Notes under the pieces: generated by a model
Told to the model about the DNA's origin: nothing
The model's input: the letters and a program-made list of their open reading frames with translations, nothing else
Databases searched by the model: none
Position numbers and translations under genes: made by a program
Shown here: in pieces, positions 21,685-29,778 of the stretch
Position numbering within the stretch: position 1 is the stretch's first letter
Layout of the letters: each line of letters begins with the position of its first letter
Origin: Nostoc punctiforme PCC 73102
GTDB taxonomy: Bacteria; Cyanobacteriota; Cyanobacteriia; Cyanobacteriales; Nostocaceae
Direction of reading: 5' to 3'
NCBI RefSeq assembly: GCF_000020025.1
Contig: NC_010628.1
Coordinates: forward strand, 1,350,001 to 1,382,000
Length of the DNA: 32,000 nucleotides

Positions 21685-23304
21685 TCAAGACTTGCGATCG
21701 CAATTCCTCAAAATACTTAAAGCCACTGCTTCTGCCACCTTAATCCCATCGATACCAGCCGAGAGGATTCCCCCTGCATATCCTGCTCCCTCTCCAGCCG
21801 GATATAGACCGACTGTATTTAGACTCTGATAATCCTCTTTGCGTTTAATCCGAATCGGTGATGACGTGCGGGTTTCCACACCAGTCAATACGGCATCATC
21901 CATTGCAAATCCTTTAATTTGTTTGTCAAAAGCGGGAAGGGCTTCGCGGATGGCGGCGATCGCATAATCTGGTAAACTCTGGCTCAGATCGCATAAATGT
22001 ACTCCAGGTGTATAAGACGGTTTAACCGTGCCGAATGCTGTAGAGGAGCGATCTTTGAGAAAGTCTCCTACCAACTGCCCCGGAGCTTCATAAGTGCCAC
22101 CGCCCAATTTAAAAGCCTGTTCTTCTAAACGTCGTTGAAAGTCAATTCCCGCTAAAGCATTTCCCGGATAATCTTCGGGGGTGATGCCCACAACGATCGC
22201 ACTATTAGCATTACGCTCATTGCGAGAGTATTGGCTCATCCCATTGGTGACAAGTCGCCCCGGTTCTGATGCAGCTGCAACTACCAAGCCTCCCGGACAC
22301 ATACAAAAACTATAGACGGAACGACCATTTTGGCAGTGGTGAACCAGTTTATAATCGGCAGCACCTAAAAGCTTATGACCAGCTTGAGGCCCGAAACGAC
22401 ATTGGTCGATGAGAGTCTGGGGATGTTCCACCCGAAAGCCGATGGAAAAAGGTTTAGGCTCAATGTAAACTCCGCGCTCGTATAGCATTTGGAAAGTATC
22501 GCGGGCGCTGTGTCCCACTGCCAAAACCACATACTCGCTGGCGATATATTCCCCACTGGCAAGGGTGACTCCCCGCACTTGTCCATTTTCAATGTTGATA
22601 TCTTCCACCCGACTTTCAAAGCGAATTTCGCCACCGAGGGATTCGATTTTGGCACGCATACTTTGGACGATTCCCACCAGTTTGAAGGTGCCGATATGCG
22701 GTTTGTTGATATAAAGAATTTCCGGTGAGGCTCCGGCGTTGACGAGTTCGGTTAATACCTTGCGCCCATAATGCTGAGGATCTTTAACTTGACTGTAGAG
22801 TTTGCCATCGGAAAATGTACCCGCACCACCTTCGCCAAACTGGGCATTGGATTCGGGGTTGAAGTCTGATTTTTTCTTCCAAAAGCCAAAAGTATCAGCA
22901 GTGCGATCGCGAACTTTTTTCCCACGTTCTAAAATGATGGGACGGAACCCCATTTGCGCCAGCATCAAACCCGCAAATAAGCCACAAGGGCCAGTACCAA
23001 TGACTATGGGGCGAATCGCCAAATTGCTAGGTGCTTTTGCCACTGGGCGATAACTCATGTCTGGAGTGACCATTACATGAGGATCTTTTTTCAGGCGCTT
23101 GAGTAGATGAGTTTCCTGAGTCGTTTCTACATCCAGAATATAAACAAGAGCGATCTCTCCTTTCTTACGGGCATCATAGCTACGCTTGAAGATGGAATAA
23201 CCGATCAATTCTTCGTCCGTGATTTGCAGCTTTTTGAGGATGGCAGTCTTGATCTCATCTTCAGGATGATCGAGCGGGAGCTTTACTTCTGTTAGTCGTA
23301 ACAT
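21685..23304 (-). CDS. NAD(P)/FAD-dependent oxidoreductase (COG2509-type FAD-dependent protein)
   Basis: 539 aa with the dinucleotide-binding motif IVIGTGPCGLFAGLMLAQMG and a C-terminal LYPAGEGAGYAGGI motif typical of this family. Confidence 0.85.
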   Translation of the reverse strand: MLRLTEVKLPLDHPEDEIKTAILKKLQITDEELIGYSIFKRSYDARKKGEIALVYILDVETTQETHLLKRLKKDPHVMVTPDMSYRPVAKAPSNLAIRPIVIGTGPCGLFAGLMLAQMGFRPIILERGKKVRDRTADTFGFWKKKSDFNPESNAQFGEGGAGTFSDGKLYSQVKDPQHYGRKVLTELVNAGASPEILYINKPHIGTFKLVGIVQSMRAKIESLGGEIRFESRVEDINIENGQVRGVTLASGEYIASEYVVLAVGHSARDTFQMLYERGVYIEPKPFSIGFRVEHPQTLIDQCRFGPQAGHKLLGAADYKLVHHCQNGRSVYSFCMCPGGLVVAAASEPGRLVTNGMSQYSRNERNANSAIVVGITPEDYPGNALAGIDFQRRLEEQAFKLGGGTYEAPGQLVGDFLKDRSSTAFGTVKPSYTPGVHLCDLSQSLPDYAIAAIREALPAFDKQIKGFAMDDAVLTGVETRTSSPIRIKRKEDYQSLNTVGLYPAGEGAGYAGGILSAGIDGIKVAEAVALSILRNCDRKS

Positions 23305-23368: not shown

Positions 23369-24400
23369 TTAAACCAGACTGACAGCCGACTCTAACATTC
23401 GTATTATCCCAAGTTCAGCATCTATTTCCACTTCCACACCGATTGGCAAGGTAAATTTATCCTTAATATGACCAATCATTGAACCATACCAAGCAGGAAT
23501 ACCTAAAGGTAGTATGTGGTCTTGCAATACTTGGATTAATGTGAATGACGGTTCATCTCCAAGACTACATTTAGTGCATTGCCCAAAGATAAAGCCAGCA
23601 ATTTGGTTCAGTATTCCAGCAGTTTTTAACTGTGTCAGCATCCTATCTATACGATAAACATCCTCGCCAACTTCTTCCACAAACAAAATGCTTTTGTTCC
23701 AAGAAGGGAGGTAAGGTGAACCTACCATCGCTGATAGCACTGATAAGTTTCCACCGATGAGTTTACCTCTCGCCTTTCCTGGTGCTATTGTCTCCACCCG
23801 CACTTCGCTAGGGTTGAGATTTTGCATAGTCACTGCTTCACCATTAAATAAGATGCGTTTGAAGTAATCCACTGTAAATTGATTCCAAGTAGATGTGGCA
23901 ACTGGCCCATGAAAAGTAATCATTTGACTACGGGCATTAATTGCCAACAACAGCGTTGTAATATCGCTGTAACCAATGATAATTTTCGGATGGGAGCTGA
24001 TCAGTGAGTAGTTTAGTAGCGGTAAAATGCGATTACAGCCCCAACCGCCACGCATAGGGATAATTGCTTTGATGGTGCGATCGCTAAACATCAAGTTTAC
24101 ATCCTGGGCGCGATCGCTATCTTTACCCGCTAAATAGCCATAACGAGCTAAAATATGCTTCCCCAACTTGACTTTTAACCCTAATTGTGAAATTGATTGC
24201 TGCGCTGCTTCAATATCTTTAGCGTCAACAATACCCGCAGGGGCGATTAATCCTACAGTATCACCCACTTGTAGGCGTGACGGCTTGTGAATGATGTTTG
24301 GAGATGGCTTACCTTGGGCGGTAAATGATGATATTTGGGTGGCTAAGGTAGCTAGTCCACAGGTTGTAATAAATTGCCGACGCTTGATAAGCATAACCAT
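23369..24400 (-). CDS. LD-carboxypeptidase (peptidase S66, LdcA/MccF-like) with a Tat-type signal
   Basis: 343 aa. The N-terminus KRRQFITTCGLATLA resembles a twin-arginine motif. VGLIAPAG, GYSDITTLL (nucleophile Ser) and a C-terminal GHI are as in S66 peptidases. Confidence 0.85.
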   Translation of the reverse strand: MVMLIKRRQFITTCGLATLATQISSFTAQGKPSPNIIHKPSRLQVGDTVGLIAPAGIVDAKDIEAAQQSISQLGLKVKLGKHILARYGYLAGKDSDRAQDVNLMFSDRTIKAIIPMRGGWGCNRILPLLNYSLISSHPKIIIGYSDITTLLLAINARSQMITFHGPVATSTWNQFTVDYFKRILFNGEAVTMQNLNPSEVRVETIAPGKARGKLIGGNLSVLSAMVGSPYLPSWNKSILFVEEVGEDVYRIDRMLTQLKTAGILNQIAGFIFGQCTKCSLGDEPSFTLIQVLQDHILPLGIPAWYGSMIGHIKDKFTLPIGVEVEIDAELGIIRMLESAVSLV

Positions 24401-24470
24401 TTAATTGAGGATTAGGATAGTCACGAATTTTAATAGGTTATAGCAACGCCTGAATAATTCATAAAAAGTT

Positions 24471-24503
24471 AGATCCCCAAAAACTTTTACGAAGTCAGGG
24501 ATC
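24471..24503 (-). terminator. Hairpin downstream of the KGK gene
   Basis: agatccc...gggatct arms (7 bp plus partial inner pairing). On the minus strand they are followed by aacttttta. The hairpin starts 64 nt past the stop at 24567. Confidence 0.4.
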
Positions 24504-24566
24504 TGAACATCACTAATTTTTACAAATTAAATAGAATTGCGATATATAAATTATTATTGACTAATT

Positions 24567-24947
24567 TTAGTCATGAATCATGCGGCGAAGATCGTCAAGA
24601 GAGGATTCTGGTTCAATGATTTCTGAATTTTTGCTGTTAGTTATTTCTACATCTTCCTCTTCAATATAAAATTCAACGCTTATCTTAATTTTTACTTTGC
24701 CCTTTTTCCAGCTTTGAGAACCTAATGTTAAAATTTCACAATCTATACCCTTCTGAAACCAATTCATATTCGGAGAGTCTTTTATCTCTACTTCTTGTCT
24801 ACTTAATTCTTCATTCAATGTATCTTCCAGCTTGGAGTTAAATGAGGTATCCATTGCTTGCCTAAATTTAGCAATTTTATATGTCTTATCTCCGAAGTCC
24901 AAAACATCACCATCGTTACACTCTATTGCCTTGAATCCATCTTCCAT
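24567..24947 (-). CDS. KGK domain protein
   Basis: 126 aa. WFQKGIDCEILTLGSQSWKKGKVKIKISVEFYIEEE matches my recollection of the cyanobacterial KGK domain, and the C-terminal tail is acidic. It lies 92 bp downstream of the dynamin-like gene and in the same orientation. Confidence 0.75.
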   Translation of the reverse strand: MEDGFKAIECNDGDVLDFGDKTYKIAKFRQAMDTSFNSKLEDTLNEELSRQEVEIKDSPNMNWFQKGIDCEILTLGSQSWKKGKVKIKISVEFYIEEEDVEITNSKNSEIIEPESSLDDLRRMIHD

Positions 24948-24992
24948 ATCAACCTTACCTTTTAAAATTTTCTAATTTACACAAAGCTGCAA

Positions 24993-25018
24993 TTAGTGAG
25001 TGACTTAGCACTCACTAA
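24993..25018 (-). promoter_or_regulatory. Perfect 10-bp stem-loop in the dynamin-KGK intergenic spacer
   Basis: ttagtgagtg-acttag-cactcactaa. No U tract follows it on the transcribed strand. Confidence 0.35.
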
Positions 25019-25039
25019 AAGATAGAATTCTCTTTGAGA

Positions 25040-27496
25040 TTAATATTCAACCTCTTGCATCGCGTCTGAAACCACAAATCCATTATTGGTAAACTTATCA
25101 TCAGCATCAAAAGAATCACCAATTGTAGGCAAGAAACGATCGTATAGTTTCATCGACTGCAAACAACTATTGATACTAGAAACGGCTGAATTGTATGCTG
25201 CAATATTTTCCTCAACAACACTCAATAATCGGCGATTATTCGCAATTTTTTCTTCAGCTTCTTGTTGCAGTGTTTTCTCTAAATAAGCCCGCGCCTGTGG
25301 GTATTGCTGCAAAATCTCATCTGCTTGCTGTTCTGCCATTGGTAACAACTGAGTTTTGAGCGTTTGGTTGATGGTTTGACGGAAAGATTTACGAATAGTA
25401 TGAGAGACTTTTGGCTCAAAATCTAGCTTCAATAATTGCCTAATTGCTGGTTCTGCTTCCACGATACTTTCAGCGTCGTATCCTTGAGAAGTTTGTAATA
25501 AAGTTTGGCGAAATTGATATATAGAAAAAGTGCCTTCATCATAAAATCTTGGACTTTCTCGCACGAAGCGATCGCACTCTACACTAGCTGCACTCACTAA
25601 TGCTTGAGTAACTCCTTTTTCTAAATTTCTGATCTCTTGTTCAATCCCACCATCATTATCTAATAAACGATACAACTGGCGATAATATTCTGACTTGCGA
25701 ATTTTTTCAATCAATCTCTGGAAATAATTCGTAACAACTTGCTGAGATGATTCAATCAAAATATCTTCTAACTGATTTGCTAAGTAATAAAATGCCTCTA
25801 CTAAAATAGCAATTAGAGGTGCAGTAGCGTTGCGAGGATGGCTAATTGTTGCACGTTGATAAGCAGAAGCTACAGAAAAAGTATCTAGCAATTCATCTAA
25901 ACGGCGAATCATTCGTGATTGCAATTGTCTAAAATCTACTTCAAAGGCATCACAAGAATTATTAATTATTTGGTTAACTTCTTCTGTGATATGCTCGCTA
26001 AATTCTCTACCAACTTGCTGGAGTTGCTGATTTAGACGTTGCAACTCTTGCACCTTCATACTCTCAATTTCTTGGGGTTGACTATCTAAATTACGTTGCA
26101 CACTTTGATAATGTTTTTTCAGTTTAATACAAACATCTTCCAAATCATCAGCAAGATTCTTAAATAATTGGGGGCGCTTTTCTTCTGTAAGATAGCGAGT
26201 AATAGCTGTGCGAAATTCTTCAGTACCACTATCTTGAATTAGCTTTTCTATCAGTTCATTTCCCCAATCTCCCAAAATCCGCACATAATTTTGATTTGGG
26301 GTTTCATAGCCATTAACAGAGACACGGAATTTAGTGGTAGATAACTTTCCTGAATTTACGCAGTAGTTGTTAAACGCATAGACAAATTGTGGTGTTTCTT
26401 CTTTACCATCTAAACCTTTAATGCTTTCTGCAAAAACAGAATCTAAACCAAATCTATCTAGTTGATTTGTCTGTTTAATCTGACTGCCATAAAATCCTAA
26501 TAATCCACTTGTTTTATAGACTTTGTTTGAATTAGCAAATTGCCCACTAATTAAATCGTCTAATCGTTGTCGTAGTTGGGTATTGTACCAAGTTTCATCG
26601 ATGCGGTTGAAGACATAGAAGACGCGATCGCGTACTCCCCCATTTTGCCGCATTAATTCCAAAAGTTCTGTTTCTTCTTTTGTCATGTCACCCGCCGCAG
26701 CAGGTTTTAGCACACACACCACCGCCGAAGTATCAGGATGTTGAATTTTAGCATAAGTTAATTGTGCGTCTTTCTCTACTGGTGCATCTATACCTGGTGT
26801 GTCAATAATTACATTTCCATCTTCTAGCAAAGGATGATTGCAGTAATATTCTATTCGCTTCAATACTGCACTATTGCTACCACGACGGGCATATCCAGCC
26901 GCTTCCTTGAGGTTAGAAAAGTTAAATTGCTCCATTGAGTATGTAGCATTATTAACCGTGTTGATGCGATCGCGGTTTGCTATATATCCTTCTACCAACA
27001 ACATTAACGCCTTCGCCTGTTTTGCACGTTCTGATTTACTCTCGCCACCCTCCTGCTGAATAATTGCTTCAGAACCTTGACGTAGCAAAGTAATTACATC
27101 AGCTTGGTTAATATTAGTTACTGTTGTAAATCCTAGTTGCTGACACAAATAAACTGCTTGTTCTCGAATTTCTGCTTCACTTAAAAACGTTAAAACAACA
27201 CGTTCTTTATCTACTTCTGCATACTCGATTTTGCATTCTGTACCTGTAGCGTGTCCTTCTGCACTGTAAAGTAGTTCTCTCTCCAATAGTGCATTGATTA
27301 GCATTGATTTACCAGCACTAAATGCACCTGCAAACACAATCTCAAACTTAGGAGAAATCGCTTTAGTTAAGGAAGTTTGTACAGGTGTAATATCTTGAAA
27401 ATGTAGCGTTGGTTCTTGTTGTAAAAGTTGTAATATCGACTCAACTTGCTCTTTCAAATTTTTGCACTGAAGCGGTAAATCTGACATATTCAGCAT
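25040..27496 (-). CDS. Bacterial dynamin-like protein (large GTPase, dynamin family)
   Basis: 818 aa. G1 is GAFSAGKS (codons at 27305-27328), G2-region HATGT, G3 DTPGID and G4 NRID. A roughly 500-aa helical, Q/E/L-rich stalk region follows. An alternative start at Met4 (27487) has AGGA 8 nt upstream. Confidence 0.9.
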   Translation of the reverse strand: MLNMSDLPLQCKNLKEQVESILQLLQQEPTLHFQDITPVQTSLTKAISPKFEIVFAGAFSAGKSMLINALLERELLYSAEGHATGTECKIEYAEVDKERVVLTFLSEAEIREQAVYLCQQLGFTTVTNINQADVITLLRQGSEAIIQQEGGESKSERAKQAKALMLLVEGYIANRDRINTVNNATYSMEQFNFSNLKEAAGYARRGSNSAVLKRIEYYCNHPLLEDGNVIIDTPGIDAPVEKDAQLTYAKIQHPDTSAVVCVLKPAAAGDMTKEETELLELMRQNGGVRDRVFYVFNRIDETWYNTQLRQRLDDLISGQFANSNKVYKTSGLLGFYGSQIKQTNQLDRFGLDSVFAESIKGLDGKEETPQFVYAFNNYCVNSGKLSTTKFRVSVNGYETPNQNYVRILGDWGNELIEKLIQDSGTEEFRTAITRYLTEEKRPQLFKNLADDLEDVCIKLKKHYQSVQRNLDSQPQEIESMKVQELQRLNQQLQQVGREFSEHITEEVNQIINNSCDAFEVDFRQLQSRMIRRLDELLDTFSVASAYQRATISHPRNATAPLIAILVEAFYYLANQLEDILIESSQQVVTNYFQRLIEKIRKSEYYRQLYRLLDNDGGIEQEIRNLEKGVTQALVSAASVECDRFVRESPRFYDEGTFSIYQFRQTLLQTSQGYDAESIVEAEPAIRQLLKLDFEPKVSHTIRKSFRQTINQTLKTQLLPMAEQQADEILQQYPQARAYLEKTLQQEAEEKIANNRRLLSVVEENIAAYNSAVSSINSCLQSMKLYDRFLPTIGDSFDADDKFTNNGFVVSDAMQEVEY

Positions 27497-27831
27497 CCTG
27501 ACAATATTTATGTATATGTTAGTTACATTTATTGTCTTGATGGTTCAGTAATATTTCTGAGATATTTGAGGTAGTAGCGTTACCGGATATCACTTAATCC
27601 ACAAATATCATGTCTGCTTAAAAACTTATTAAACTAACGCGGTTAAACCCTTTGCTCTCTCTGTTCGCGGCAGGAGACAGAGATCAATTTTCCTTATATA
27701 TTAGTTTTGAGAAAAAAATCTGTGTATTTAGATACTTTTTAGAGACTTTTTTCCAAATGTCATGGTATTGTAACTTAAGCAAAGCCTTGCTCAGTCAATT
27801 CAAGGAGTCATGATTATCGAGTGGTTGATTC

Positions 27832-28404
27832 ATGATCGATAGTAAAAAAGTTCGGTTGAAGTGGCAAAATTATTGGTTTAAAACCTTTGGTAGATGGCGT
27901 TCTTGTCCGTTAACCTGTCCAATAGACAGACCTCATCATCGCCATGTTTTTTGGAGTTGGATCGGTAGTTTTTTAGCCATCACAGCAACGTCTTACCTTG
28001 CTGTTAAAACTAATTCTCCTTTGCTAATGGCTCCTTTTGGTGCTACAAGTGTCTTGATCTTTGGTGTCCCTGACAGTCCTTTAGCTCAACCTCGTAATGT
28101 CATTGGGGGTAATCTTTTAGCTGCTATAGTGAGTCTGATAATTCTGCATTTTTTCGGTGCTTCTCCCTTGGCAATGGGAATGGCTGTTTCTGGTGCGATC
28201 GCAATTATGCAGTTTACCGGAACTGTACACCCACCTTCAGGTGCTGTTGCATTAGTTGTCATGATGACGAAACCAGGCTGGCTATTTCTGCTAACACCTG
28301 CCTTTGAGGGATCGATGATCTTAGTGCTAATAACAACATTGTCTCTAGAGAAATCAAACAAAAAATGTAGGGGCAAGCGATGCTCTGCCCCTGAGTGTGT
28401 ATAG
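27832..28404 (+). CDS. HPP family membrane protein (nitrite-transporter-related family)
   Basis: 190 aa with several TM segments and the eponymous motif GTVHPPSGAVAL. The last ~25 aa look atypical. Confidence 0.8.
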   Translation: MIDSKKVRLKWQNYWFKTFGRWRSCPLTCPIDRPHHRHVFWSWIGSFLAITATSYLAVKTNSPLLMAPFGATSVLIFGVPDSPLAQPRNVIGGNLLAAIVSLIILHFFGASPLAMGMAVSGAIAIMQFTGTVHPPSGAVALVVMMTKPGWLFLLTPAFEGSMILVLITTLSLEKSNKKCRGKRCSAPECV

Positions 28405-28446
28405 TTTTGTGTAAGTCCTAAATAGGGAAAATACGCTGTATTACAA

Positions 28447-29013
28447 CTAACTCGATACTGAATTAGCTGCCTCGGAAGCTTTCGCAGCAGGTGGAAAACC
28501 ACCCATGCGAATCTCAGAAGTGAAGGAAGTAATGCTAAATCCACCAAAACTCTTGAGGACATTTACCCGCATTCGCAAATTGGGGCTAGCAAACCACAGG
28601 CGCTCCTCTGACCAGATGTTTTCATCTTCTATAGTTAGGATTAAAGCACCATCACTGTCAAATTTGTAGTGTCCAGCAACTGGAGTTTTCTCAGCATCAA
28701 CTACTTCCCGCAGTAACTTGCCTTCAGACGGATTATCTGCATCGGGTACTGAAACTAACACAGTTGAACCACTATGTTTTGTTTGATCCTTTTCCATTGT
28801 GCCATTCCAGTTAATTTTGATAGCACAGGAGGCGGAACTAGGATTAATTTCGTACTGTTGACACAGTTTGGTCGCTTCTGGATGATCTACTGCTAAGGTA
28901 TCAATGATAATGTCTGACTTGCTATGTTCAGATTGATTCAAAGCTAAATGTTGACTAGTCCGATGAGAAAACCATTTACCAGCGCTTAACTGAAAAAACT
29001 CTTCAATATTCAT
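28447..29013 (-). CDS. cpcS: CpcS/CpeS-family phycobiliprotein (bilin) lyase
   Basis: 188 aa. [24 protein letters not shown] at the N-terminus and [36 protein letters not shown] at the C-terminus are hallmark S-type lyase sequence. Confidence 0.85.
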
Positions 29014-29088: not shown

Positions 29089-29778
29089 TTAAGCTTGATC
29101 GCCTATTTCCTCAAGCTTCTTGAGGCCAATTCTGGCTGCCTCAGCAACGTTGAAATGATTGTCTTTTTCTAAGTATTTTAAAGCTGAGACACTCTTGGGA
29201 GTGGGAAGATTACCCAAAGCTTCTGCCAAACGCTGCCTGACTAACCAATCATCTGATTGGGCAAAGCGTAGAATCTGATCGACAGACTCAATATCTTTAA
29301 TTTCTCCGAGCGCAGAAATTGCAGCTTGTTGCAACACTACTTCTTTGCTATCTAATGCCTGAAGAAGAATTTGACGGGCACGGGGGTCTTTAATGTTACC
29401 AAGAGAAACGGCTGCACTAAAGCGTACTAGCCAATCAGTATCTTCATAAAACGCCCGTGAAAGCACTTCAAAGGCTCTGGCATCGCCCAAATATCCTAAA
29501 GCACCGGCGGCATCAGCGCGGATGCCATAATCGGGGTCATTTTCGAGAATTCTGACCAAAATTGAATAACATTCTGGCGTTGGCTTGATTCCAAGGGCAA
29601 ATATTGCCATCGATCGCAGTTGCAAAGATTCGTCGTCTAGTACCTTTTTAATTAAAGGGACTGCCTGTTCAGGAGAAACATGACGCAGATTAGCAAGAGC
29701 TACCATGCGATCGCGTAAGTTCGGACTTTCTAACTGAGTAGAAATTTCTTGTAAGCTGAGAGCTGTCATGTAGTTCAA
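29089..29778 (-). CDS. HEAT-repeat (PBS lyase HEAT-like) protein, NblB-like
   Basis: 229 aa made of repeated LxDxDxxVRxxAAxALGxIGD-type units (e.g. DWLVRFSAAVSLGNIKDPRA, DYGIRADAAGALGYLGDARA). Confidence 0.85.
   Translation of the reverse strand: MNYMTALSLQEISTQLESPNLRDRMVALANLRHVSPEQAVPLIKKVLDDESLQLRSMAIFALGIKPTPECYSILVRILENDPDYGIRADAAGALGYLGDARAFEVLSRAFYEDTDWLVRFSAAVSLGNIKDPRARQILLQALDSKEVVLQQAAISALGEIKDIESVDQILRFAQSDDWLVRQRLAEALGNLPTPKSVSALKYLEKDNHFNVAEAARIGLKKLEEIGDQA

Follow-up and report, generated by a model that had tools for sequence, protein, structure and literature searches.

The 32-kb stretch of the Nostoc punctiforme PCC 73102 genome analysed here (32,000 nucleotides of contig NC_010628.1, referred to below as the window) carries on its minus strand a gene for a dynamin-like protein (DLP), by its sequence the orthologue of the GTPase Slr0869 (SynDLP) of Synechocystis sp. 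PCC 6803, followed by a gene for a small protein of the KGK domain family. The locus is a further member of an operon that has already been published and described, and is not a new system. The two genes have an ancient linkage, a third gene for a small HNH protein follows them in most of the other genera that were compared, and in Nostoc the KGK gene has been lost repeatedly from beside an intact DLP gene. The reading we favour, with somewhat less than an even chance of being right, makes the locus the SynDLP operon of Nostoc and the KGK protein an accessory factor that is co-transcribed but not essential, in an operon of DLP, KGK and HNH genes that is decaying.

A SynDLP-type GTPase followed by a KGK gene

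The two genes and the spacer between them are located as follows (positions are those of the window; aa, amino acids; ORF, open reading frame):

25040-27496, minus strand: dynamin-like GTPase gene (DLP, the SynDLP/Slr0869 orthologue), 818-aa ORF counted from the first ATG
24948-25039, minus strand: DLP-KGK spacer, 92 bp
24567-24947, minus strand: KGK-domain gene, 126-aa ORF with an acidic product, pI 4.5

An earlier note made from the letters of the window (the original prediction) had given both ORFs, their shared orientation and their 92-bp spacing, and these were exact. For the DLP, Met4 (27487) is probably the true start, as the alignment with SynDLP begins there; gene callers say 815 or 818 aa.

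The large protein matched the Pfam model Dynamin_N (2.2e-16, 60.8 bits, cutoff 27), which places it in the dynamin superfamily, with the 164 model positions stretched across residues 53-295 and about 80 surplus residues in the G domain. The three signature motifs that had been predicted were all located, G1 GAFSAGKS at residues 57-64, G3 DTPGID at 232-237 and G4 NRID at 297-300, and with the extension LINALL at 66-71 the segment GAFSAGKSMLINALL (residues 57-71) matches the extended P-loop of cyanobacterial DLPs, GxxxxGKS/TxL/INALL/I. The absence of an evident membrane paddle was also borne out, in that no transmembrane (TM)-like segment was found in the DLP in Kyte-Doolittle profiles with 19-aa windows (top mean 1.55, at the P-loop strand). 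The small protein matched the KGK model PF08872 over its full length (1.6e-44, 151.6 bits, cutoff 25.6, model positions 1-119 of 119), including W-x-K-G-K, and its residues 96-126 form an acidic tail of pI 4.2; the KGK motif and the acidic tail had both been noted beforehand.

When the DLP was compared with all sequences in the Protein Data Bank (PDB) by phmmer, the match was Slr0869 (7zw6, 1128 bits, residues 4-795 against 1-793; also 9em7, 9em8 and 9em9), and blastp gave 64% identity over 794 columns. Cys11 and Cys778 of the DLP align with C8 and C777 of SynDLP, the BSE cysteine pair, which forms a disulfide in SynDLP, and the HPRN loop is retained. The likeness thus extends over the G1-G4 motifs, the P-loop extension, the BSE cysteines, the HPRN loop, the lack of a TM segment and the downstream KGK gene. 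The long G-domain insert, which had been described as unusual, is present, but it also occurs in SynDLP and is therefore a feature of the clade rather than a peculiarity of this gene. The differences are that the window comes from another order, Nostocales, that G3 reads DTPG here and DLPG in SynDLP, and that the last ~20 C-terminal residues are unrelated and hypervariable. At the level of the locus, the window has one KGK gene and no HNH gene, whereas the closest SynDLP-like locus of the metagenomes, L081 (locus numbers with L are ours), has a KGK array and a divergent HNH gene.

SynDLP of Synechocystis sp. PCC 6803 has a cryo-EM structure (7zw6) and was assigned to the KGK clade (Gewehn et al. 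2023, PMC10104851). According to the same study it is soluble, oligomerises by itself without requiring nucleotide, binds anionic thylakoid lipids, remodels anionic membranes in vitro and hydrolyses GTP at a high basal rate, and it is expressed, yet non-essential in standard conditions. A kcat of about 45 per min has been published for SynDLP. These biochemical properties probably carry over to the DLP of the window. The original prediction, which saw a module with no assigned function, had therefore understated what is known, as the GTPase has cryo-EM structures and biochemistry through its orthologue. The same prediction had named both SynDLP and a clade called after KGK, correctly in each case, and SynDLP belongs to that clade. 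The clade was defined by Jilly et al. 2018 (PMC5827413), who placed 121 cyanobacterial DLPs in six clades, the 'KGK clade' among them, with KGK 'typically' downstream; their table has KGK for 9 of the 19 clade members and an HNH nuclease for 3. The window has the same arrangement of a DLP and a downstream PF08872 gene, but the repeated KGK loss, the tandem KGK paralogues and the recurrent HNH gene described below are not discussed in that paper.

Other dynamin-like types were considered for the GTPase and rejected. NosDLP/BDLP1 (Low & Lowe 2006) is likewise a cyanobacterial dynamin-like GTPase, and from the same species, N. punctiforme, but it falls in the 'Tandem A/B' clade, with a paddle, tandem DLP pairs and no KGK partner (clade table of PMC5827413); the DLP of the window matches SynDLP instead. 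With Bacillus subtilis DynA and the Eleos system it shares a dynamin-superfamily G domain and a proposed membrane-protection or phage-related role, but only one G domain is present and a LeoB/C-like partner is missing. The score for the two-headed DynA type (NCBIfam NF052648) was 32.8 bits against an equivalog cutoff of 1600. Membership of Eleos LeoA/LeoBC was likewise rejected, as the PADLOC matches (37.5 and 30.8 bits) covered only the P-loop/G-domain N-terminus and the partner gene is absent.

Ancient linkage of DLP and KGK and a recurrent HNH gene

An exhaustive search with the KGK profile gave 701 clusters at 50% identity, nearly all of them stand-alone proteins of 80-180 aa, with a few tandem double-KGK proteins. 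The genomic context was then compared for 11 chromosomal KGK genes of other genera (Argonema, Microcoleus, Symplocastrum, Planktothrix, Calothrix PCC 7507, Crinalium and further assemblies). In all 11 a Dynamin_N gene, encoding 752-843 aa, lies upstream of KGK on the same strand, the flanking contexts are of at least seven different kinds, and two or three KGK paralogues are often present. A metagenome scan with SynDLP as the query gave five loci, and the complete ones, four of four (60-84% identity to SynDLP), have KGK downstream of the DLP gene; there are up to four KGK pieces in L081 and two KGK genes in L083. The gap between DLP and KGK ranges from 64 to 1650 bp across loci.

The chance of meeting a KGK gene within four genes downstream on the same strand was roughly estimated at ~3e-4 per genome. 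With this estimate and the adjacency in 11 of 11 cases with unrelated flanks, the linkage cannot be attributed to chance. It is ancient. The original prediction had proposed the frequency of the adjacency outside close relatives as a check, and it lies far above chance both from the side of the KGK genes (11/11) and from that of the DLP loci (4/4). It is accordingly hardly credible that the two genes are mere syntenic neighbours without a functional link. Such an explanation could draw on the slot after the Nostoc DLP, which is variable, hosts Uma2, GAF histidine kinase, ParE and other genes, and is often without KGK; it is countered by the same order and strand in all 11 genomes of other genera with unrelated flanks, by the rough per-genome estimate and by published co-regulation in Synechocystis (PMC4759255).

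Two to four KGK paralogues, in part fragmentary, stand in tandem in several loci (L081:4616-6251, L083:3799-4620, L095:3088-5420, L091:5001-5762), and one fused double-KGK protein of 253 aa was seen. The paralogues are old and differentially retained among lineages; the KGK protein of L069 is only 40% identical to that of the window, though the DLPs are 84% identical. In L097 (2101-4717), a DDE transposase and a HepT/MNT toxin-antitoxin pair lie between two KGK genes of one module. A PIN gene is located immediately upstream of the DLP gene in L090, and a ParE pair nearby in L095. Genes for HEAT-repeat proteins were found between DLP and KGK in L082 (4820-5894) and after HNH in L095 (5720-7021) and L097 (5720-7015); their recurrence near the module, including the HEAT/PBS-lyase-like gene of the window (29089-29778), may be coincidence.

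In 10 of the 11 KGK loci of other genera (L086-L092 and L095-L097; for example L092:6390-6635) the last KGK gene is followed by an HNH gene (PF01844) for a protein of 80-81 aa, and in the eleventh, L098, KGK is present and HNH is not. KGK and HNH overlap by 4 nt in L089 and L092 and are separated by 2-12 nt in L086, L087, L088, L090, L095 and L097; the exceptions are L096, with 50 nt, and L091, with an intervening 162-aa ORF. The HNH protein has the motifs CxxC...DH...N...CxxC and a pI of 9.6, and its profile matches were limited to HNH modules of a generic kind in defence proteins (DpdF 7e-11, PtuB, ZorE). The mean pairwise identity in ten triads was 72% for DLP, 69% for HNH and 36% for KGK, so that HNH equals the DLP in conservation and KGK evolves fast.

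HNH genes were also found in other arrangements. HNH follows KGK in L069 (14462-14710), stands directly after the DLP gene without any KGK in L073 (12615-12863), lies 1.8 kb past the DLP gene, again without KGK, in L075 (7031-7306), and comes after a Uma2 gene in L082 (6976-7221). In SynDLP-like L081 (1828-2097, minus strand) and in L085 it is located divergently upstream of the DLP gene. The neighbourhood thus contains an HNH gene in other genera, and the ancestral one would have contained it as well. No HNH homologue was found in the 32-kb window or in the core Nostoc loci, so the window lacks the complete DLP-KGK-HNH triad. The description of the locus as a two-gene module is therefore right for the window, but most lineages have a DLP gene, one to several KGK genes and the HNH gene. 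In the literature searched, nothing relevant was found on a dynamin-HNH link or on the triad, and PMC5827413 lists HNH without comment.

In the sister clade of core Nostoc, the position of HNH is followed by a gene for a small protein of ~84 aa with one predicted hydrophobic stretch and the motif ...HGLFRCEWLYPY.CD (L069:14721-15002, L073:12887-13141, L075:7330-7584, L070:13922-14188), which is kept even where HNH and KGK are absent.

KGK genes also occur on plasmids, in L093 (pNPM6 of Nostoc sp. N6, NZ_CP026688.1:26020-26457) and L094 (Calothrix sp. PCC 7716, AP025019.1:230360-230716). These are distant members (33-35% identity) on mobilizable plasmids, and their neighbours are an integrase, a PIN and a helix-turn-helix (HTH) regulator gene, or transposases. 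A mobile origin of the module was considered and rejected, as no SynDLP-type gene was found on plasmids and no KGK gene in phages.

Repeated loss of the KGK gene in Nostocaceae

A genome scan with the DLP of the window kept 80 loci, all from Nostocaceae species representatives, with DLP identities of 81-97%. Because all of them are Nostocaceae they do not bear on distant adjacency, and they were used for presence and absence on a fine scale. KGK was scored within 10 kb of the DLP gene, with the window counted and with four contigs that end early treated as uninformative. A KGK gene was found in 26 of the 77 informative loci and none in the other 51, which was reproduced by tblastn and by a broader HMM. 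Loci with and without KGK are intermixed on the DLP tree, and the nearest neighbour of the window, L001, has a DLP that is 97% identical and has no KGK.

Where KGK is absent, alignment of the junctions revealed a clean indel in the interval from the DLP stop to the hairpin described below, which both kinds of loci share, with at least two deletion end-points. In about 27 loci the gene for LD-carboxypeptidase begins just 92-240 bp past the DLP stop. Of the 26 KGK genes, 23 are intact and three are pseudogenes (two with a nonsense mutation, one with a frameshift), and all the DLP ORFs are intact, with the same dN/dS of 0.12 in the groups with and without KGK. The KGK protein is thus dispensable and has been lost repeatedly in Nostoc.

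These losses, without a detectable effect on the DLP sequence, argue against an obligatory regulator. The original prediction had made the KGK protein a dedicated regulator of the GTPase, and the part of this claim that stands is the ancient, co-oriented unit; against the remainder are the 51 of 77 loci in which an intact, equally constrained DLP has no KGK gene within 10 kb, the KGK pseudogenes, the 9 of 19 published clade members with KGK, and the lack of relaxation in the DLP after loss. A footprint of a contact surface on the DLP, which could have appeared as relaxation after the loss of KGK, was looked for and not seen (p = 0.33).

The LD-carboxypeptidase gene (Peptidase_S66) is the most constant gene downstream of the Nostoc DLP (loci L001-L079), usually followed by one for a FAD-dependent protein. 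The slot between DLP and LD-carboxypeptidase is empty or holds KGK, Uma2 (209-216 aa), a 665-aa GAF histidine kinase or a ParE/antitoxin pair; a 202-aa secreted-looking protein and a 330-aa repeat protein were further occupants.

Where KGK is retained, its dN/dS is 0.40 overall, 0.23 in the WKKGK core, 0.14 in the C-terminal helix and 0.93 in residues 36-62, which indicates purifying selection that is weaker than on the DLP. The near-invariant columns among 108 members are G66, L72, W79, G82, K83, E91, S114, L116, D117 and R120. An AlphaFold2 model built from these 108 members (pLDDT 74, pTM 0.54, moderate confidence) predicts two short strands, two helices, a poorly predicted loop and a beta-hairpin carrying the invariant W-x-K-G-K, and further a disordered acidic linker (102-109) and the conserved C-terminal helix (residues 113-126, PESxLDDLRR). 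A Foldseek search with the model found nothing related in the PDB or in the viral models. As S114, L116, D117 and R120 are near-invariant and the dN/dS is low, the C-terminal helix is the best candidate for a docking element.

The evidence on HNH and on KGK loss can also be read in another way, in which KGK mainly serves HNH, whether as its inhibitor, as something like an immunity factor or as an adaptor, is adjacent to DLP through the shared operon, and became superfluous after HNH was lost in Nostoc. KGK and HNH overlap or lie 2-12 nt apart in the eight loci named above, their charges are opposite (pI 4.5 with an acidic tail for KGK, 9.6 for HNH), core Nostoc without HNH shows massive loss and pseudogenisation of KGK, and KGK residues 36-62 are near-neutral. 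A possible analogy is the pairing of the HNH DNases colicin E7/E9 with their small acidic inhibitors Im7/Im9; in most DLP-KGK-HNH lineages, too, the gene for a small acidic protein directly adjoins that for a small basic HNH protein and is translationally coupled to it. The comparison is limited in that the KGK fold is predicted to be alpha/beta without a PDB match, HNH exists without KGK, and the window has no HNH. The intact HNH genes without any KGK in L073 and L075 mean that KGK is not an obligatory antidote, and its role as an obligatory immunity factor of HNH was downgraded for this reason. Conversely, L098 has KGK but no HNH, the 23 intact KGK copies of Nostoc are still subject to purifying selection (dN/dS 0.40), and in L081 and L085 the HNH gene, divergent upstream of DLP, is uncoupled from the KGK array yet linked to DLP. 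On balance a primary role of KGK with HNH is possible, but unlikely.

The putative transcription unit

The unit in the window contains two hairpins and is preceded by a divergent intergenic region:

24994-25017, minus strand: stem-loop in the DLP-KGK spacer, 10-bp stem and 6-nt loop, found by folding; no T-run after the stem
24463-24504, minus strand (hairpin 24471-24504): terminator-like hairpin closing the DLP-KGK unit, AGATCCC...GGGGATCT then AACTTTTT (T-run), found by folding
27497-27831, minus strand: upstream intergenic region, divergent with an HPP-family gene, presumed promoter region

The hairpins between the genes and after KGK, which had been pointed out beforehand, are both real by folding. 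They were recognised from their folding and by comparing loci; a simple terminator scan called neither of them, and Rfam gave no family match for the spacers. The DLP-KGK spacer folds at -20.5 kcal/mol (z = -2.1 against shuffles), and its hairpin is kept in the KGK-bearing Nostoc loci and hardly occurs away from this locus (13 matches in 13 loci). The stem is followed by no T-run; the stem-loop may be a 3'-end, processing or stability element of the mRNA. The region of the hairpin after KGK is also more stable than shuffles (z about -2), and in relatives without KGK the DLP stop leads straight into the same AGATCCCC...GGGGATCT hairpin and T-run, as seen in the junction alignment. The hairpin at 24471-24504 is one copy of a dispersed palindrome, GATCCCC-N-GGGGATC, some variants of which have GACTTC...GAAGTC inside; this family gave 44 matches in 41 loci, and palindromes of the GATCCCC...GGGGATC type occur in Nostoc contigs outside the DLP locus as well.

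The KGK gene therefore lies inside the DLP transcription unit as this is delimited by the hairpins, and would be co-transcribed with the DLP gene. That it lies after the DLP stop but ahead of the shared hairpin, together with the joint response of slr0868-slr0871 to lexA disruption, makes co-expression of the DLP and the genes downstream of it plausible. In a lexA mutant of Synechocystis, slr0868 was 16-fold, slr0869 (SynDLP) 8-fold, slr0870 6-fold and slr0871 8-fold up, and a second data set in the same paper has similar fold changes (Kizawa et al. 2016, PMC4759255). In the window, no LexA box was found in 27497-27831, and 10 matches in the whole window against 7.9 expected are no enrichment; control of the DLP gene of the window through a LexA box upstream was rejected on these grounds. 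No consensus promoter-like match was found in 27497-27831 either, the nearest one on the DLP strand being at 27867-27839, within the HPP gene.

A role in DNA transactions similar to that of Escherichia coli CrfC, a dynamin-like protein of the replication fork, with HNH giving a nucleic-acid activity, could be proposed from the names in source databases, where these DLPs are called 'replication fork clamp-binding protein CrfC', from the conserved HNH neighbour and from the lexA response of the Synechocystis cluster. We regard it as very improbable. The CrfC label is a generic automatic name, and no LexA box was found upstream in the window. LexA of Synechocystis is not an SOS regulator, with which the abstract of one paper agrees. 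SynDLP, moreover, binds and remodels anionic membranes in vitro (PMC10104851).

Proposed role of the KGK protein

According to the reading we favour, the GTPase is of the SynDLP type and the oligomerisation, lipid binding and GTPase activity of its orthologue are assumed for it too. The KGK gene would be transcribed with the GTPase gene, ahead of the terminator-like hairpin of the unit, and the KGK protein would dock on the GTPase, probably via its conserved C-terminal helix. There it could tune the assembly state of the GTPase or its futile GTP turnover, or could bridge the GTPase to a further partner such as HNH. The ancestral unit would have been a DLP gene, one or more KGK paralogues and the HNH gene for 80-81 aa. 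In the Nostoc lineage HNH is lost and KGK is being lost repeatedly, probably in the direction from the triad to DLP with KGK and then to DLP alone, and the window would represent an intermediate, reduced state of the module. The authors of the SynDLP study expected that futile oligomerisation and GTP hydrolysis are 'likely' held back 'by accessory proteins' (PMC10104851), which we count as support for an accessory role of KGK. No published test of a KGK protein was found in the literature searched.

Several points weigh against this proposal. KGK is coupled more tightly to HNH (overlap or 2-12 nt, 50 nt in L096) than to DLP, and HNH could therefore be the primary partner of KGK. No DLP-KGK fusion was found among the best 150 of the 701 KGK representatives, and no region of the DLP has relaxed constraint or more variability in the lineages without KGK (permutation p = 0.33). 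The divergences of KGK and DLP are correlated (r = 0.65-0.75), but these are raw values that include the shared phylogeny. The plasmid KGK genes have neither DLP nor HNH nearby, so the KGK domain is not confined to the dynamin context. Finally, the absence of KGK in Nostoc covers 10 kb around the DLP gene, and KGK copies could be located elsewhere in those genomes.

The HNH gene could also point to an ancestral three-component system with a SynDLP-type membrane-remodelling GTPase, fast-evolving KGK proteins as adaptors or triggers and a minimal HNH nuclease, which would answer membrane damage or phage infection or would act on DNA, and of which the window would have a decayed two-gene remnant; we think this possible but doubtful. 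Still less probable is a specific stress or anti-phage system, in which the GTPase would sense or seal membrane damage, HNH would be the effector and KGK would give specificity or act as the trigger. There are precedents for such a role in B. subtilis DynA, which acts in phage defence, and in Eleos. The HNH protein resembles HNH modules of defence proteins, KGK diverges quickly, has tandem paralogues (up to four pieces in L081) and occurs patchily, and toxin-antitoxin, PIN, Uma2 and transposase genes adjoin the unit in several loci. The SynDLP authors, too, weigh a repair function following phage or other membrane stress (PMC10104851). However, the DLP is vertically inherited, with identities that track taxonomy, evolves under strong constraint (dN/dS 0.12) and is kept even where it stands alone. 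It was not found on plasmids, nor was KGK found in phages, and the PADLOC matches (37-44 bits) cover the G domain only, without a LeoB/C-like partner. The flanks are mostly housekeeping genes, the density of HIP1 sites is at background, and the copy in the window is without the putative effector. The service of KGK to HNH, the defence or stress role and the CrfC-like role are not mutually exclusive with an accessory role of KGK in the DLP operon.

Surrounding genes and annotation

The other features of the window near the unit are:

21685-23304: FAD-dependent protein gene, downstream of DLP-KGK (Pfam)
23369-24400: LD-carboxypeptidase gene (Peptidase_S66), downstream of DLP-KGK (Pfam)
25568-25575, no strand: HIP1 site (GCGATCGC) within the DLP gene, octamer match
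26624-26631, no strand: HIP1 site within the DLP gene, octamer match
26966-26973, no strand: HIP1 site within the DLP gene, octamer match
27832-28404, plus strand: HPP-family membrane protein gene, upstream of DLP
28447-29013: CpeS-like gene, upstream, 1-2 kb from DLP
29089-29778: HEAT/PBS-lyase-like gene, upstream, 1-2 kb from DLP

The three HIP1 positions had been given correctly and had been taken as a sign of long residence. This argument is weakened, as the whole window has 29 HIP1 octamers against 0.18 expected and the density in the DLP gene (1.2/kb) is that of the window background (0.9/kb), which is compatible with long residence and says nothing further. The G+C content is 0.37 over 24-28 kb (DLP 0.375, KGK 0.341) against 0.42 for the window. 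A 158-aa ORF on the minus strand (28086-28562) overlaps the HPP-family gene of the plus strand and is probably spurious.

Two names given in one source (P0001, P0045) look like automatic over-annotations: 'replication fork clamp-binding protein CrfC' for the DLP and 'ATP-dependent protease HslVU ATPase subunit' for the KGK protein, the latter probably stemming from a sub-threshold compositional match to the HslU I-domain (E = 0.26).

Conclusions

The pairing of DLP and KGK had already been published (PMC5827413), and what is added to that paper here is that KGK is optional and repeatedly lost, that it occurs as tandem paralogues and that an HNH gene recurs in the module. Among bacterial proteins, SynDLP is regarded as the nearest relative of eukaryotic dynamin, and the KGK protein is the obvious candidate for restraining its oligomerisation and GTP hydrolysis. 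As HNH is a well-conserved third member, co-expressing just DLP and KGK may miss a relevant partner. The window and L001, with a DLP that is 97% identical and no KGK, form a natural pair for comparison, and, if the three-component reading is true, the variants of near-identical Nostoc strains with and without KGK would be ready test material for the role of the KGK protein.

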